Part shown: in pieces, positions 2,085 to 18,318 of the stretch | How positions within the stretch are numbered: the first letter of the stretch is position 1 | How the letters are laid out: each line of letters begins with the position of its first letter | Source: a virus | Lineage: Duplodnaviria; Heunggongvirae; Uroviricota; Caudoviricetes | Length of the DNA stretch: 36,521 nt | Direction: 5' to 3' (one strand) | Virus record (IMG/VR): IMGVR_UViG_2778261065_000031 | Coordinates: 1 to 36,521 of that record | The notes under the pieces: model-generated | Seen by the model: only the letters and a program-made list of their open reading frames with translations | Database searches by the model: none | What the model was told of the DNA's origin: nothing | Position numbers and translations under genes: made by a program

Positions 2085-4082
2085 CTATTCTGACAACGCA
2101 TCAGACTTAGCCCCCTGCGTCATAGCGTTAATTACCTTTTGTGCCTGCTGCATGGCTTTCTCAAACGCTGTTGATCCGCGTGGGGTATTTGCCATTCGTA
2201 GCATTGCATTTCTGAATGGCTCGCTCTCATAGGCGCGAGTAAGAAGTCCGTAGCTTACTGCTGCGCCAGTTGTCGCCGGGTTCATTGCCGTCCCATACCC
2301 AATTATGAACGGGATAGTTTGCTGCCCTGTGGGTGTTGTTACTGCCGCTTTTGCAGCCTGCTGCGTGGATTGCAGGTAGTTTTTTAATCCTTTCAGATAA
2401 GCAGCGTCCTGCCCCTTAAATGTGATGCCAGTCTGGTTTTGCAGGATGTTAAGCTGCCGAAGGAACTGGTCAGGGGATCCGCCAGATTTCTCCATCGCCT
2501 TTCCAATGATGCCATTGCGCATTTGCGCCCTGCCAACACGACCAACTGAGTTATACAGCGTCTTAATTTCCGATTTGTTCTTGCTGAATAGCATGTTGTT
2601 GACAACTTCCGGTGTCAGGTCGCCTTTCATGAGAACATTCTTCAGCCTGGTATTCTTTAGTTTCGCCGCTTCGTCAGCGTAGACGGCATTGGCCTGCTGA
2701 TATTTACGGAGAGTATCATTGCCAAGATTCTGACCAATGGCACCATTGATATCGTCTGTCATCGCCTTGTAAACGCGCTGAATGGCAGCATCGGAACGGT
2801 TTGGTAACACTGGTCGTTCCCCCTTCACGTCCATTCTGAACTGGCTGCGCAGATCGCTTAATTGCTTCAAATCCAGATTTACCGGACCATCAGGACCAGC
2901 ATTGCGAATAAGCTCATCACGATAGGATTGAAGTTTTGAAATCGTCTCGTTATCAGCGACCTTACCAAGCTTCTGCAGGTTAGATATCTCAGTATCAATC
3001 TGCTGAATTGCTCGCACAGGCTGAATGTTTACTCCAGCCATAGCATTCTGAACCTGCTCCAGTCGATTACCGGCAGCACGACGAATTCCTGATGTTTTCG
3101 CTTTAAGGCTGTCAATAACAACCGCTGGATCATACTCACCGAATTTATCAGCAAATCTCTGCACCAACTGGCTTCTCGCTTCCTGTTGCGTTGCTCTCAT
3201 TCCGCTTGTGCCAGCCAGAGGGATATTTTCTGCTGTAGTCTGCGCCATTTTTCCGACGCGGGAAGTAGGTTGTAACAGGTCTGTGGTGTGCAGAGGCACT
3301 CCTTCACGCTCTGCAAACCTGATAGCCTGTTGCGCTTCTGGCGCTATCGCACCACGAACTCCACGATAAGCAGCACCTAATCCACGTCCGGCAGCGTTAA
3401 TAGCTCCGCCAGCCAGAACGCCAACGCCTAAGTCGGTGGCTAGTGCTTCCGCATCATCTTTCACACTGTTTGCAGCAAGTGATCCAACTGCGTTTTCAGC
3501 GAGAAGGCGAGTTGCACCCTGAGCAATTCGACCAGCAAGTGTTGGTGCCTGTGTTGCCGCTCTCTCAACGCCGGCAGGTGTGAGGTAAGGCAATGCTTCA
3601 GCAAATACCCTGCCCTCTGTCGTTTGTGGAGTCAGCGCACCTTGCTGAAGGCCAAAGTCCTGCTCTAATCCATGCGTTGTTACTCGTGGCGCGGGTTGAT
3701 ATGTTCCATCGCCAATGCCGAGTTTACCGCCAGCCCATGCAGCCGCGCTTGTTACAGCATCGGCAACTGATGCAGGTATGTTTGCCACGTTCACGCCAGC
3801 CTGCACCAGTCCGCGACCAGTCTCTTTCACTGCTTCACCAAGATCAGACATAAATCCACTTTGCTGTGGTTGTTGCTGTGCTACTGGTTGCTGTGTCTCC
3901 ACTGGCTGCACAGATGGCAATGGATAGGCTGCATAGAAAGCTTGCTTAGCCTGCTCTGCATTTTCTCCGGCTTGCGGGGCCACGACTTCATTGAAGTATT
4001 GCTCCTGAGCCTGCGCTTTTTGTTCTGGTGCTAACGCCTGATACTGTGGAGAGGCGATAACATCTTTCCATGCTTTAGCCAT
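2085..4082 (-). CDS. Ejection (injection) protein, P22 gp16-like
   Basis: 665 aa, Gln/Ala-rich, last gene of the ejection-protein trio by position; TAATG overlap with upstream gene. Confidence 0.7.
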   Translation of the reverse strand: MAKAWKDVIASPQYQALAPEQKAQAQEQYFNEVVAPQAGENAEQAKQAFYAAYPLPSVQPVETQQPVAQQQPQQSGFMSDLGEAVKETGRGLVQAGVNVANIPASVADAVTSAAAWAGGKLGIGDGTYQPAPRVTTHGLEQDFGLQQGALTPQTTEGRVFAEALPYLTPAGVERAATQAPTLAGRIAQGATRLLAENAVGSLAANSVKDDAEALATDLGVGVLAGGAINAAGRGLGAAYRGVRGAIAPEAQQAIRFAEREGVPLHTTDLLQPTSRVGKMAQTTAENIPLAGTSGMRATQQEARSQLVQRFADKFGEYDPAVVIDSLKAKTSGIRRAAGNRLEQVQNAMAGVNIQPVRAIQQIDTEISNLQKLGKVADNETISKLQSYRDELIRNAGPDGPVNLDLKQLSDLRSQFRMDVKGERPVLPNRSDAAIQRVYKAMTDDINGAIGQNLGNDTLRKYQQANAVYADEAAKLKNTRLKNVLMKGDLTPEVVNNMLFSKNKSEIKTLYNSVGRVGRAQMRNGIIGKAMEKSGGSPDQFLRQLNILQNQTGITFKGQDAAYLKGLKNYLQSTQQAAKAAVTTPTGQQTIPFIIGYGTAMNPATTGAAVSYGLLTRAYESEPFRNAMLRMANTPRGSTAFEKAMQQAQKVINAMTQGAKSDALSE

Positions 4083-5377
4083 TAATCACCCCATAGTGAA
4101 GAAAAGTTACTGCCAGTAGTAGATTGTTGCCTTGGAATATTCTGCACCGGCTCCTGATAATCAAACTGTTTTTTAACAGTGCTCAACTTGCTTTCAAGCT
4201 GATTTCTAATCTTTCCGATAGAGTCACGAAAAGCCTTTTCACTCATTTTGGGGCTTAGGGCACCAACCGCATCGGATAATTTTTTACCCTCAGCATCTGA
4301 AAGAGCGCCCATACCCTTCAGGGACTGCACCATAGGAAGGAATGTTTGAGCTTTAAAGGTGTCGAGCCTTGCTTCAAAGTTAGCCGCATCAGAGCCAGGA
4401 ACTGTCGGAAACGCTGAGCGAATTCCTACTGCTTTTGAAAGGCCGGGGCTTTGCTCTATCTCGTTGAGAGAATCAAGCGCGGTGCTGAACGTATCAACTG
4501 CACCCTGAGCAGCGGCCTGCCTGTCAGCGCGGGCTATGTCAGCCTTTTGCCGAACATCTGCCTGTTTCTGTTTTAGCTCTTCAAGCTTTAACTGATTGCT
4601 TTCTCTGGCTATTTGTCTGTCCAGAGCCTTTTCTTGTAATTCTGCTCTTTGTATTTCGCGGGAAAGAGCAGCATTCTGTGCGCTGATGTTCTGTCCACGT
4701 ATCTGGATGTCCTGACCTCGAGCTGTTAGTGCTTCTCCGGCCTGATTGCTGCGGATTGTCTCTGCCAGTCTGCCTCGGTCAATTTCACGACCAGCCATCT
4801 TGTCCTGAACATTGAAGTAATCAATCGGACCAAGCGCAGCCATCCCAAGGTGATCAACAAACTCACCAAATCCTGAAGGGTTCTGCTGATACATCTGAGC
4901 AACGCTGTTAGGGTCAACACCGACGCGAGTCAGTTCCTTGGCGTTGTTTTGCAGCCATGATTGCATTGCTTCTGGAGACGATGACGCAAGGCGTGCGCCA
5001 GCCGCTAAGGTGCCGATAGAATTACGCTGATCTTCATCAATGAATCCCATGCCTTTACGAACGGATTCAATCTGGTCTGGATATTGAGTAGCCAACTGAC
5101 GCAAAGCACCGCGATCACCAGACGCATAAGCATTAGCGTACGCCTGCTGAAATTCTTTCTGCCGCTGAGCCTGCTTTTCCTGCTGAAACACCCCTGCAAT
5201 ACCTGAAAGACCTTGCAAAGCAGTCAGCCCAACATTGTTAGCGCCTGAACGCTCAATATCATTGTTCTGCCTGATAAGCTGAAGCGTATTGCCGATGTCA
5301 TTTACGCTCGGAGCGTTTGAGTTGACGCCGCCGATACCAGCTAACAATCCGCCATTTGATCCTTGCCAAGTAGCCAT
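4082..5377 (-). CDS. Ejection protein, P22 gp20-like
   Basis: 431 aa; position between gp7-like and gp16-like genes. Confidence 0.7.
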   Translation of the reverse strand: MATWQGSNGGLLAGIGGVNSNAPSVNDIGNTLQLIRQNNDIERSGANNVGLTALQGLSGIAGVFQQEKQAQRQKEFQQAYANAYASGDRGALRQLATQYPDQIESVRKGMGFIDEDQRNSIGTLAAGARLASSSPEAMQSWLQNNAKELTRVGVDPNSVAQMYQQNPSGFGEFVDHLGMAALGPIDYFNVQDKMAGREIDRGRLAETIRSNQAGEALTARGQDIQIRGQNISAQNAALSREIQRAELQEKALDRQIARESNQLKLEELKQKQADVRQKADIARADRQAAAQGAVDTFSTALDSLNEIEQSPGLSKAVGIRSAFPTVPGSDAANFEARLDTFKAQTFLPMVQSLKGMGALSDAEGKKLSDAVGALSPKMSEKAFRDSIGKIRNQLESKLSTVKKQFDYQEPVQNIPRQQSTTGSNFSSLWGD

Positions 5378-6081: not shown

Positions 6082-6537
6082 CTATCTCCCGTGATTCAGG
6101 AAGTCGATTAGTTCTTCGCGTGTTGCGCTGTAAAAAGTCACGTCATCCACGCCTTTGAAGTATTTCTTGATGGTTCCTACACGCTTAAGGCCAATCATTG
6201 CGCAGTACATCTGCCCGTGGCGGAATTTGCGTGCAGCGAACGATGTGACGCACTGAACGGTGGTGTTAGTCAGAATGTATCGCCAGAACGCCAGACCGAT
6301 TTCCTTGCTGAATCCACGAACCTCTGGCAGGTACATGGCGTGGCAATCGAATGTCAGCGGCTGAATCTCCTGATAGTAAACAATGCCGCCGAACTGCCCG
6401 TGCACGCTCACCTCAAAGTAACGGCATTCAGGTTTGTAGTCGTATCCATCGCCGTTGTTGCTCCCGGCGATAATGTCAGGGTGATTTCCGACTGCTTCTA
6501 TCAGGTCGATGTTTCGCGTTGGTTTGAATGTAATCAT
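6082..6537 (-). CDS. P22 gp14-like protein (assigned by position)
   Basis: 151 aa ORF between tail needle and gp7-like gene, as in P22 order 26-14-7. Confidence 0.5.
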   Translation of the reverse strand: MITFKPTRNIDLIEAVGNHPDIIAGSNNGDGYDYKPECRYFEVSVHGQFGGIVYYQEIQPLTFDCHAMYLPEVRGFSKEIGLAFWRYILTNTTVQCVTSFAARKFRHGQMYCAMIGLKRVGTIKKYFKGVDDVTFYSATREELIDFLNHGR

Positions 6538-7238: not shown

Positions 7239-8656
7239 TACTCAATCCTTATCTGAGCGCCAGACAGAGTTACAGGTGACTTCGTGATAACGCGCAATTT
7301 GAAGCCGACATTTTTCCTGATGCGCCCTACTCGCTTCCACAAAACGCGTTTGTCGTAAACGAACGGTTCATTCTGCTCAATCATCTGCTCACGTCCGTAA
7401 TTGATGCCGTCAGTGGTTGCAGAGAGGAACAGGCGGTCAGCATACTGCGCAACGCCAGTTGAAGATTCAACTTCAAGGTCGAAAACTCTGGCGTTATCTG
7501 CTTTGAAGAGTGGAGTAAACAGCAGGTGTTCCTGTTGAAGACCATACTGGCTGCTGATGTCGAATTGCAATTTCCCGGTCACGGGTTCCAGTTTATCGCC
7601 GCACGTTATCTGATTGCCTTCGAAAATGAAGTCGATAGCGCGGTACACATCGTCATACAGGCCTGTTTTCAGCACACACCATTGCGGACCATTAGCGCTT
7701 GAAGATGCGTCGTACACAAGTACATGGCGCGGAAGATGGATAATCAGCAACTCATGCGCATCAAATCGCAGAGACTCCATCACGCCATCAGCCAGTTCAT
7801 CAGCAGTGTAGGAGCGGAGGATTTTCTCAATGCTCGCGCTGGCGATTGGTGATACCTGACCGGAGCCGATGATGTATACAGACGGCGCACCCGTTGCCGG
7901 ATTGCTGATGAACGCATAAGAATCAGCGAATGGCGTTTTGCAGTAAGTCCCGGCAATGCCTTTCTGCACCATAAGAGATGGCTGTGCGACATACAAAGCA
8001 GCACCAACGGTGGTTGCACCCGTCAGGGAGAAATATTCAATCGTTGATGAACCAAAGCATACGATGAAGTCTCGCCATGTTCCGATGCCGATGATGCCGT
8101 CAGGCTGCGATTCTGCGCGATATTGTGCGCTGTAGCGGTCAGGGTGCGATTCGTCTTCAGGGTCAGTGATAAACCATGAATCAGTTCCGTCTTTTGACCA
8201 CGCATAACGCCCGCGCAAGCGCGTAATGTCGCGAACCGAACCTAACTCATACTGCGTGAATCCGCTGTCTGTAGGCCAGTTTGAGACGGTTTTAACCGTG
8301 CCATCATATCGATACTCAACCAGTTGACCATTAACGCCTACCGCCTGTGATGTCCGACCATGCGCCATTGATACGCGACCACTTCCGGCAACATCACCGA
8401 CTTCGCTTTCGCCTTTGTAGAGCTTCCCACCACACACGCGATAAACAGCACTCTGCGCCATGTTGTATTCGACGCCGCGCGATATACCGTTCACATCAGA
8501 ACGTTTGGCAATGCCCGGGAATGAGCGAAGATATCCGCTGCTGTTGAGGATTTCTTTGGGTGTAGCCAACATATTCACTGGCAGATAGTCGATATAATCG
8601 GCGTTTCGAAAGTCTTTGCCGACACCTTTCATAAGCGGAAGTTGCTGAATCGGCAT
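7238..8656 (-). CDS. Tail accessory/plug protein (P22 gp10 homolog)
   Basis: 472 aa, same length as P22 gp10; position between gp4 and gp26. Confidence 0.8.
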
Positions 8657-9133
8657 TATTCGCTCCCGTTATCGCAAGGTTCCTTCCGGTGGAAGTAATT
8701 CCAACCGTTCCACTTCGCCAACTGGTTACCGCTACCAACAGGCATACGGTTTGGATAACCGGACTTACATTTAGCGGCCTTTGCCCTATCCATTGCAGAC
8801 AGTTTGACGAGTCGCTCTTTCCCGTATCTGGCAGTGGTTATAAGTTTTGCAGACGCTTCCAGCGCATAATCTGGAGCAATGCGGCAGGCAAGGTTGAAAA
8901 TGACGGCATTGATAGCGTTATTTGATAAACCGTGCTCATCGCCCGGATCCGGAGCAACATCTGCATCAGCAAAAATGTAGCCAACGTTGACACCAGGTGA
9001 CGCATCACCGCCAAGCCATTCAGCCATCATCATTTCAAGGTCGTTGACGCCGTCTTCCATAGACTGCGGTTCGACATCGGTTAACGTGGCATTTGATGCC
9101 ACACCGAGCTTACGTAATGCCGCAAGAACTAAA

Positions 9134-9156
<23 letters not shown>
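8656..9156 (-). CDS. Head-to-tail adaptor (P22 gp4 homolog); track ORF trimmed to internal ATG
   Basis: Track ORF 8656..9291 has a spurious (NQ)n N-terminal extension; from [21 protein letters not shown] it matches P22 gp4 (about 166 aa); ATG at 9156. Confidence 0.85.
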
Positions 9157-9430
<274 letters not shown>

Positions 9431-9442
9431 GCTTGTCTCCAT

Positions 9443-9466
9443 ATAAAAAAGGGAGCCGAAGCTCCC
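9443..9466 (-). terminator. Intrinsic terminator immediately downstream of the coat gene
   Basis: Minus-strand RNA GGGAGC-UUCG-GCUCCC followed by UUUUUU; 9 nt after coat stop. Confidence 0.6.
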
Positions 9467-9474
9467 TCTGGTTA

Positions 9475-10770
9475 TCACGCGGTCTGGTTAGGCAGACCAA
9501 TACCAATTGCCTCTGGTCGTACAGCACATGCTGAATACCACACAGCAATACGGCACTTACCAGACAGAGTGTTGATATCACCCTGCGTTGCGAAGATGCC
9601 GTTAACACCAATACCAGGAATGCTGAAGGAAGACGTTTTCATGCCAGCAAACAGTTCATGGGTTACCGGGATCGGCTGAGACAGCAGACGGATTGAGTCA
9701 TCAGCCCAGAACACGTTAGCGGTGGTTGTTGCCACGTTCAGAACGTTTACCGGAGTGGAATCAGCAAGAGAGGTGTTTACGTTAGCGTAAGCCTTCTCTT
9801 CTTTTGTCAGTGAAGAGTCATCAAGCGCAATCGGCTTCGGCGTGATTTCGATGTGAGTACCATCGATCACACGGGTGATTGAGAAAGTAGCATCATCAGT
9901 CAGCACGTTCTTCGCCATCTGAGACAGGAATTTCACACCAGTGAAGCTGATTTTGTCGCCGCGCTTAAACCCGGTGGTGGAGGATACGGTCACCGTTGCA
10001 ACACGGTTGTCGACGTTCTCTTTGTTACCATCGGTATCAAGAGTGTATGCCTGCGGCTTAAACTTCTGCGCACCAGAAACAGTTACACCAGTAGCGGTTG
10101 ACTTGGTAACTGCCGGAAGTTTCGGTGAGCGAAGAATTTCATCAAAGCCAGCAATCTGACGCTGAATAGTACCGTTGCGATACGCTTCTTCAGGAACGCG
10201 CCCGAAGATGTCACCATCTACCAGGTTGCGGCCTGCTTTGCGGTAATCGTCAGGGTTCAGGAAGTAACTGATGCCCATATCGCGGTTTAGCTCACGGGAG
10301 AACATCAGGCGCTCTGCATCAGACACAAAATCCCAGCCAGACAGGCCAGTAGATGGACCAATTGCTCGGGTATCGTGAACAACAAGTGAGCCCATTTCAG
10401 TTGCCTGTTTGGCAATTGCTGACTCAATGTTATTCGCCAGTTTTTTAGCGGATGCCTGGATGCGGCGACGGTAAGAACGCTCATCACGCAGGTCATCTGC
10501 ACGAAGCTCGAAGAAATCGTTATCCGGATCGCCCATGTTGCATTTCACGGAGAGTTCCAGAATCCCAGTTGCGTTGCCAGTTAAATCCCAGCCAGTCTGG
10601 GTTGGCGCTTCCTGCTCAACAGGCATCCACACGGTGTTGCTTGAACGCTGCATGGATTCTGCCGGAGGGGTGTATTTTGTCACTTTGGACGCCATTGGCG
10701 TCAGGTTCTGGACGGTTTCGATGATTTCATCCAGAGCATACGTGACCAGTTGACCTTCATTTAATGCCAT
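9475..10770 (-). CDS. Major capsid (coat) protein (P22 gp5 homolog)
   Basis: 431 aa; MALNEGQ...VVHDTRAIG...FATQGDI...TLSGKCRIA matches P22 coat protein from memory. Confidence 0.95.
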
Positions 10771-18223: not shown

Positions 18224-18254
18224 GCAAAAAGCCCCGAGCTATTAACTCAGGGCT
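18224..18254 (-). terminator. Intrinsic terminator about 30-60 nt downstream of pR' (tR'-like)
   Basis: Minus-strand RNA AGCCCUGAG-UUAAUA-GCUCGGGGCU followed by UUUUUGCGUUUU. Confidence 0.6.
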
Positions 18255-18289
18255 TTATTTAACGAGTGCATTTATCCATCGTTGAGTCA

Positions 18290-18318
18290 AATTTACCCAA
18301 CTTTATTCAAAAAGTCAA
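18290..18318 (-). promoter_or_regulatory. Late promoter pR' (-35 TTGACT, 17-bp spacer, -10 TAAATT) with adjacent qut region
   Basis: Minus strand TTGACTTTTTGAATAAAGTTGGGTAAATTTGACTCAACGATGG matches lambda pR' from memory. Confidence 0.65.

Follow-up and report, generated by a model that had tools for sequence, protein, structure and literature searches.

A conserved terminator-like hairpin directly behind the coat gene in the late operon of a P22-like Escherichia coli prophage

Directly downstream of the major coat protein gene of a P22-like E. coli prophage lies a G-C-rich hairpin with a UUCG loop and a U6 tract, which has the form of an intrinsic terminator and is conserved at this position in distant relatives. 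The best explanation for the element, to which we assign a probability of roughly 0.55, is that it would act both as a leaky terminator and as a barrier to 3´ exonucleases, favoring the coat mRNA. From a single antiterminated transcript, tailed phages must obtain coat subunits by the hundred but only about a dozen copies each of most remaining virion proteins, and a hairpin following the coat gene is an obvious candidate for a cis-element exerting RNA-level control of the coat ratio. We note that the hairpin is a rediscovery of an annotated feature of P22-like phages: a putative intra-operon terminator after gene 5 has been described for phages L, ST64T and P22, with the suggestion that it lowers downstream mRNA by partial termination or blocks spurious, non-antiterminated transcription (Zaworski et al., G3, PMC8022706). 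The same attenuation hypothesis has thus been published previously, and this occurrence is nothing new in kind; what this analysis adds is how broadly the hairpin is conserved, its covariation and its parallels in phages lambda and HK97.

The prophage occupies the window, by which we mean the entire 36,521 nt stretch of viral DNA analyzed (IMG/VR record IMGVR_UViG_2778261065_000031). An earlier note on this DNA had reported a GC-rich hairpin with a UUCG loop and a U6 tract after the coat gene, inside the late operon, and we recovered each of these elements at the same positions, on the minus strand (Table 1). Reading along this strand, the order is TGA (9477-9475) TAA CC AGA-GGGAGC-UUCG-GCUCCC-UUU-UUU AUAU GGAG ACAAGC AUG (9430). 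The coat gene thus ends in tandem in-frame stop codons, TGA at 9477-9475 and TAA at 9474-9472. The stem comprises nine pairs (9469..9448), with five G-C pairs and one A-U pair in the 6 bp core and A-U, G.U and A-U pairs in the extension; a pattern scan likewise returned nine pairs, five of them G-C, a loop of 4 nt and then TTTATATGGA. Seven of the first 8 nt after the core are U, and the opposite strand has no T-tract. The hairpin occupies a 44 nt gap, the largest in the densely packed stretch of genes between 15832 and 2085. It therefore combines the hallmarks of an intrinsic terminator, namely a G-C-rich stem, a loop of few nucleotides, a sense-strand U-tract and an intergenic position after a stop codon. 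The distance of 9 nt from the stop codon given in the earlier note needs a minor correction: the G-C core begins at the ninth nucleotide, and the gap itself is 8 nt to the core and 5 nt to the extended stem. The GGAG and the ATG of the EP-repeat gene do follow the hairpin as described, but to call them a re-initiation signal is an overstatement, as the Shine-Dalgarno sequence and start codon make up a normal, independent ribosome binding site.

Table 1. Positions in the window of the post-coat hairpin and of the late-operon features discussed.
Feature	Position	Strand	Basis
Lambda-type Q antiterminator gene, 207 aa	18361..18984	-	Pfam PF03589 E=1.3e-57
PR´-like late promoter TTGACT-17-TAAATT and strong tR´-like terminator	18228..18318	-	scan
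Major coat protein gene, P22 gp5 homolog, 431 aa	9475..10770	-	ORF list; Pfam PF11651 P22_CoatProtein E=5.6e-166
Hairpin 5´ arm: core GGGAGC 9466-9461, extension AGA 9469-9467	9461..9469	-	sequence, scan, folds
UUCG tetraloop, closing pair C-G	9457..9460	-	sequence
Hairpin 3´ arm: core GCUCCC 9456-9451; UUU 9450-9448 pairs with the extension	9448..9456	-	sequence, scan, fold, two covarying stem pairs in a 22-lineage alignment
U6 tract abutting the 3´ side of the G-C core, followed by AUAU	9445..9450	-	sequence
Shine-Dalgarno GGAG of the EP-repeat gene, 6 nt spacer to ATG	9437..9440	-	sequence
EP-repeat gene, 98 aa, ATG 9430-9428	9134..9430	-	phrog_1175 E=5e-32; phrog_3769 for the N-terminus
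gp4 homolog (head-completion or "plug" protein)	8656..9156	-	Pfam PF11650 E=1.3e-58

The predicted structure is far more stable than expected by chance. Upon folding, the 26 nt element reached -14.9 kcal/mol (z = -4.46), a value equaled by none of 200 shuffled sequences, and the hairpin was retained in both the MFE and the centroid structures of 61 nt and 161 nt contexts. Since a loose terminator scan of the whole window was at chance level, with 22 matches observed and 20.5 expected and hence no overall enrichment, we ran a re-scoring scan of our own. On the sense strand of the late operon (18,227 nt), the post-coat element was the sole hairpin with a T-tail at or below -8 kcal/mol; dinucleotide shuffles of the operon body (n = 300) gave on average 0.41 matches at this threshold and 0.02 at or below -14 kcal/mol. 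The 16-mer hairpin core occurs once within the window and, even with two mismatches allowed, gave only a single match there, which does not fit a REP-like repeat. Searches against Rfam 15 returned no family at the gathering score anywhere in the window; at E ≤ 10 over 9350-9560, there were only sub-threshold matches, several of which involved the 3´ ends of sRNA models, as one would expect of generic terminator-like stems. An antisense or bidirectional terminator at the coat junction was rejected, given that the plus strand lacks a T-tract after the stem. Elsewhere in the window, at 26432-26453, we observed a palindromic hairpin (AACCCGAC...GTCGGGTT) with T-rich tails and a terminator score on each strand, probably a bidirectional terminator of the early/immunity region.

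The late operon is formed by the minus-strand genes from about 18.3 kb down to position 1, and the nearest phages, E. coli Dewey, APC_JM3.2 and IME10, share 96-97% nucleotide identity with the window. At the head of the operon are the Q gene and a PR´-like promoter with its tR´-like terminator, which spans 18256-18228, placing the post-coat hairpin 9 kb into the transcript. The small and large terminase genes come next after the late promoter region, and a portal-sized ORF of 721 aa and a scaffold-sized ORF of 303 aa between terminase and coat were given these putative assignments by synteny with P22 and L. Beyond the hairpin, gp4 is the first low-copy gene that relies on readthrough, and the ORFs that follow are, again judging from synteny, candidates for gp10, the needle and the ejection-protein genes. 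Promoter-like matches in the window were fewer than expected from shuffles, and none from 9430 to 2085 was credible. Because essential head-completion, ejection and tail genes thus lie downstream without a credible promoter, most polymerases must pass the hairpin, and an element with essential genes behind it in the same operon cannot end transcription completely. RNA polymerase modified by Q resists hairpin-dependent terminators, and we expect that it would mostly ignore the post-coat hairpin as well.

To assess conservation, we collected 13 GTDB species-genome loci, 80 IMG/VR contigs and 9 phage records, all of which encode a P22-type coat protein, and found a G-C hairpin followed by a T-rich tract just past the coat stop codon in nearly every locus. 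Among 21 diverse loci, the hairpin and T-tract were present 3´ of the coat gene in 19, covering about 12 genera and coat proteins down to about 25% identity. The placement is specific: 19 of the 24 terminator-like matches on the 131 kb of sense strand from these 21 loci fall at the coat 3´ junction, and no other gene junction in the temperate loci carries one. Carriers include Escherichia, Shigella, Salmonella (P22 and L), Citrobacter, Buttiauxella, Tatumella, Providencia, Proteus and Kluyvera and, at 25-31% coat identity, Sf101, Pseudomonas AH02, Sortsne, Kc166B and ST231. The first of the two exceptions, Pantoea L011, has kept the hairpin with a poor T-tract; in the second, Ralstonia RSK1, coat and the gene after it overlap, and a terminator capped by UUCG is found one gene later. 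This strong RSK1 terminator, GGGCCGCCC-TTCG-GGGCGGC-T6, lies after ORF5, at about 4431-4460 of our RSK1 locus (L098). With such reach and with the junction region found in 217 of 5,426 complete E. coli genomes, the hairpin of this prophage type is both ancient and common.

The sequence of the hairpin varies among lineages in a manner that preserves its structure. The stem is GGGAGC/GCUCCC in the clade of this prophage, Providencia and the Proteus phage Brookers, GGGGC/GCCCC in P22, L, Citrobacter, Buttiauxella, Tatumella, Pantoea, Kluyvera and Sf101, and GGGGCC/GGCCCC in Pseudomonas AH02 and Kosakonia Kc166B, with longer variants in Sortsne and ST231. In an alignment of 22 lineages, 93% of the cells are paired and two of the six pairs show changes on both sides (13 cells), giving a covariation score that none of 500 shuffles reached. 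Most relatives have a UUCG loop, with UGCG, UUUG, UUAG, GAAA and others in the rest; AH02 carries GAAA in place of UUCG, and both are unusually stable tetraloops. The T-rich tail has 4-8 T among the first 8 nt, typically 6-7, and is degraded in Pantoea (ATTCTCAC), Tatumella (TTTTCGTG) and three E. coli/Shigella loci (CCCGTTTTT). Between stop codon and stem, the spacer differs in length (2-20 nt) and defies alignment; the stem nonetheless persists. Across about 84 close relatives, the 12 core stem positions are invariant and the loop, tail and spacer positions vary, a rough hand count with too few changes for significance within the clade. The G.U pairs and the one-sided T-tract fit an RNA made from the sense strand rather than a DNA palindrome. 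Collectively, the strong conservation, the covariation and the position specificity bear out the identification in the earlier note of an intrinsic-terminator-type structure.

In temperate relatives, the hairpin is followed at the same place by a Shine-Dalgarno sequence (GGAG, GAGG or a near variant, GGTG at one locus), and 16-24 nt separate the hairpin core from the start codon of the following gene, which leaves no room for a restart promoter. Lytic relatives, in which no Q context is obvious, also retain a strong hairpin, followed by U7-U8, and in these the start codon is 47-55 nt away. Two of them, Sortsne (L100, about 3812-3825) and ST231 (L102, about 3775-3790), share a GCTTATACT motif and have the 47-55 nt leader after the terminator; the arrangement in these two phages may be a terminator-promoter pair.

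The gene behind the hairpin belongs to a family that includes epsilon34 gene 6, P22 orf69 and phage L orf186, with homologs at this place in nearly all temperate relatives. Members are non-essential in P22 and have no known function (PMC2629481). A conserved N-terminal domain of about 45 aa (M..M[LI][YF][KR].G...W....[DN]GW..HP), whose range extends from E. coli and Salmonella as far as Pseudomonas AH02 and the lytic phages Sortsne, Kc166B and ST231, is followed by a variable acidic or EP linker and then by a basic tail that overlaps the gp4 start; in the window, the ORF extends 23 nt past that start (9156). Long alleles (186-206 aa) include a WDGH domain (PF25311). The family is diverse, with 79 distinct proteins among the 105 sequences examined, and comparison with PDB sequences returned only low-complexity noise and no relative. 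Prophages with 98%-identical coat regions can carry different gene-6 alleles; their homology spans the hairpin and T-tract, ends at the Shine-Dalgarno sequence and resumes about 57 nt ahead of the gp4 start.

We also noted several features of the EP-repeat gene itself. The EP repeat is encoded by a (GAACCA)n hexanucleotide array of 12.7 copies at 9210-9285 (minus strand). Among prophages with about 99% identical coat genes, the array encodes anywhere between about 1 and about 16 EP units, interspersed with an occasional DP, ES or EQ variant, and behaves like a slippage-prone in-frame microsatellite, as judged from these alleles. It is open in all three frames, giving rise to a spurious 211-aa extension of the gp4 ORF (MLQNQNQ..., 8656-9291). 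At 9440-9442 (minus strand), an A/C polymorphism (ATATGGAG in the window versus ATCTGGAG in most relatives) gives rise to an ATG in frame with the conserved start, four codons ahead of it and overlapping the Shine-Dalgarno sequence. This ATG at 9442 (METS...) was rejected as the true start on account of the overlap and of its presence in only 4 of about 85 close relatives, and it is probably not used. Occlusion of the Shine-Dalgarno sequence was likewise rejected: the 61 nt MFE structure pairs CCA (9472-9470) with UGG (9441-9439), but this pairing is absent from the centroid and unconserved. A different repeat, of three tandem 11 nt units (ATCTGCTGGTA), is found at 24314-24345 inside a 299-aa ORF (23906-24805, minus strand); by likeness to the 11 bp repeats described in gene 18 of phage L (PMC8022706), these units may be origin iterons.

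How might the hairpin act? The two roles offered in the earlier note, attenuation favoring coat over plug proteins or a boundary of RNA stability or processing, are both plausible, and our preferred reading, a leaky terminator that is also a 3´ exonuclease barrier, draws on each. Termination itself, its efficiency with and without Q, any mRNA stabilization and any effect on protein ratios are inferred. Polymerase lacking the Q modification would stop at the hairpin, while Q-modified polymerase, which makes essentially all late mRNA, would mostly read through. The hairpin would form on the readthrough RNA too, once transcribed, and after termination, or after endonucleolytic cleavage in the U/A-rich tract, it would block 3´ exonucleases. 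The net effect would be scaffold/coat mRNA that is more abundant and longer-lived than the mRNA for the low-copy head-completion, ejection and tail proteins. A role in coat mRNA abundance is favored because, whether the phage is temperate or lytic, the gene directly ahead of the element is the one for its most abundant structural protein. Terminators have been reported to increase upstream expression via mRNA stabilization (PMC10204088; PMC11696848). In the literature, we found no 3´-end or coverage data for any P22-like late operon.

The P22 virion contains roughly 415 copies of coat protein versus 12 of gp4. Since lambda-type Q should suppress termination, any attenuation at the hairpin is possibly small, and far too small alone to account for 415:12. 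Translation must account for most of the stoichiometry, given that the low-copy terminase and portal genes lie upstream of the coat gene on the same transcript. In addition, a ribosome terminating at the TGA, 8 nt upstream of the core, may hinder the hairpin on coupled transcripts, and the degraded T-tract of some lineages likewise counts against the preferred reading.

These considerations weigh on a stronger version of attenuation, according to which a substantial share of Q-modified transcription ends at the hairpin and the resulting drop is the main reason that coat outnumbers the downstream proteins. The U-tract in the window is the best of the set examined and surpasses that of the prophage's own tR´-like terminator by a T-score that is indicative, the T-tract is conserved in most lineages, the hairpin of lytic relatives stays strong (U7-U8) where no Q context is obvious, and T7-like phages have a strong terminator right behind the capsid gene (PMC10134795). 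However, the lambda-type Q gene together with the PR´/tR´ arrangement implies a terminator-resistant polymerase, the essential downstream genes have no credible promoter of their own, and in temperate phages the 16-24 nt between hairpin and ATG are too few for a restart promoter. We therefore consider efficient attenuation unlikely, though it deserves to be kept in mind.

Resistance of the Q-modified polymerase is compatible with a second possibility, put forward by Zaworski et al. (PMC8022706), in which the hairpin is only a safety terminator that stops spurious transcription begun elsewhere than at the late promoter and hence Q-less, for example in a lysogen, and has no part in lytic gene dosage. 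This would leave unexplained why the element is placed exactly after the coat gene in 19 of 21 loci when other temperate junctions are bare, why lytic relatives retain it and why HK97 has hairpins behind exactly its two most abundant structural genes, and we regard it as improbable.

The tight distance between hairpin and start codon (16-24 nt), alongside an upstream spacer that varies, could instead indicate service to gene 6, as a protective or translation-enhancing 5´ stem-loop with a U-rich leader, or a recombination linker for swapping gene-6 cassettes, and the homology between swapped alleles does end exactly at the Shine-Dalgarno sequence, past the hairpin and T-tract. Yet the fixed distance amounts to the minimal packing of U-tract, Shine-Dalgarno sequence and spacer. 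In lytic relatives the hairpin stays beside the coat gene with the next start 47-55 nt off, in swaps it moves with coat and not with gene 6, and a shared stretch of 16-26 nt is little for homologous recombination to work with. We accordingly give this explanation little credence. A chance palindrome, or a protein-binding site in DNA without RNA function, is effectively refuted by the shuffles (expectation 0.02), the covariation and the position specificity with conservation over about 12 genera, for although the generic scan of the window was at chance level overall and palindrome covariation alone cannot tell DNA from RNA, G.U wobbles occur in the sense orientation only and the T-tract is one-sided.

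Two further candidates were considered and rejected. RNase III sites, such as those between T7 genes, need about two helical turns, or about 20 bp, of double-stranded RNA; the stem here has 6-9 bp and was not extended in larger-context folds. A 3´-UTR or prophage sRNA is not suggested either, because the spacer of 5 nt past the stop codon leaves no non-coding body for an sRNA, and the sole lead, the 66 nt sRNA HnrS (PMC13502914), comes from other prophages and a different context.

The closest counterpart of the element is in phage L, where a terminator is annotated at the orthologous position (GenBank record MW013503, features 6356-6392), with the sequence TAA CTAACA GGGGC TTCG GCCCC TTTCTTATTT GAGG. 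A minus-strand "terminator" feature in the same record we set aside as probably a prediction artefact of the palindrome. In phage L and P22, as here, the site lies within the late operon between a P22-type coat gene and a gene of the gene-6/orf69/orf186 family, upstream of gp4, and is made up of a spacer of few nucleotides, a G-C stem of 5-6 bp, a T-rich tract, a Shine-Dalgarno sequence and an ATG about 18-20 nt later. The loop is UUCG here and in phage L but UGCG in P22; the stem differs in a compensatory manner (GGGAGC/GCUCCC versus GGGGC/GCCCC in L and P22), and the U-tract is an uninterrupted U6 rather than the UUUCUU of the L-type element. The downstream gene here is a short EP-repeat allele, unlike that of phage L, and Q is of the lambda type in this prophage but of the phage 21 type in phage L (PMC8022706).

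Similar hairpins occur in other lambdoid late operons. In lambda (NC_001416, 7158-7204; positions 1559-1605 of locus L103), we observed an unannotated hairpin between E and FI, UGGCCC-UUCG-GGGCCA-UUGUUUCU, followed by a Shine-Dalgarno sequence and ATG. The HK97 record (NC_002167) lists a "terminator, putative" after major head gene 5 and another after the major tail gene; the head-gene hairpin is GGGCGGG-GAAA-CCCGCCC-UUUUAA, and the tail-gene hairpin has no U-tract. Late transcription of both phages is Q-dependent. Shared with the prophage are the lambdoid late operon, a G-C tetraloop hairpin after the most abundant structural gene and a ribosome binding site close behind. The flanking genes, in contrast, are non-orthologous, the HK97 head-gene loop is GAAA rather than UUCG, and the U-tract is missing from the HK97 tail hairpin and weaker in the other two (lambda, UUGUUUCU; HK97 head, UUUUAA). 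That the HK97 tail hairpin lacks a U-tract and that the one of lambda is weak argues for the hairpin itself, and with it RNA stability, as the common denominator. Tentatively, as an idea with somewhat less than an even chance of being correct, we suggest that stable tetraloop hairpins right behind the most abundant structural genes (P22-type coat, lambda E, HK97 head and tail) act mainly post-transcriptionally, despite Q. If so, they would be 3´-stabilizing or processing boundaries that cut one late mRNA into segments of differing lifetimes, and could constitute a general "punctuation" of Q-antiterminated late operons.

A more distant parallel is found in T7, where the terminator T-phi lies directly behind the capsid gene. 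LUZ100 and other T7-like phages similarly have a strong terminator immediately downstream of the capsid gene (PMC10134795). Common to these phages and the prophage is a terminator past the capsid gene in a continuous structural block, thought to raise capsid mRNA over that of downstream genes; the T7-type system, however, uses the phage single-subunit RNA polymerase and a paired local promoter without Q, and is thus analogous, not homologous. With canonical E. coli intrinsic terminators and the window's own tR´, finally, the post-coat hairpin shares a G-C stem, a short loop and a sense-strand U-tract past a stop codon, but whereas tR´ is a regulated switch for Q, the post-coat hairpin is located deep within the Q-modified transcript.
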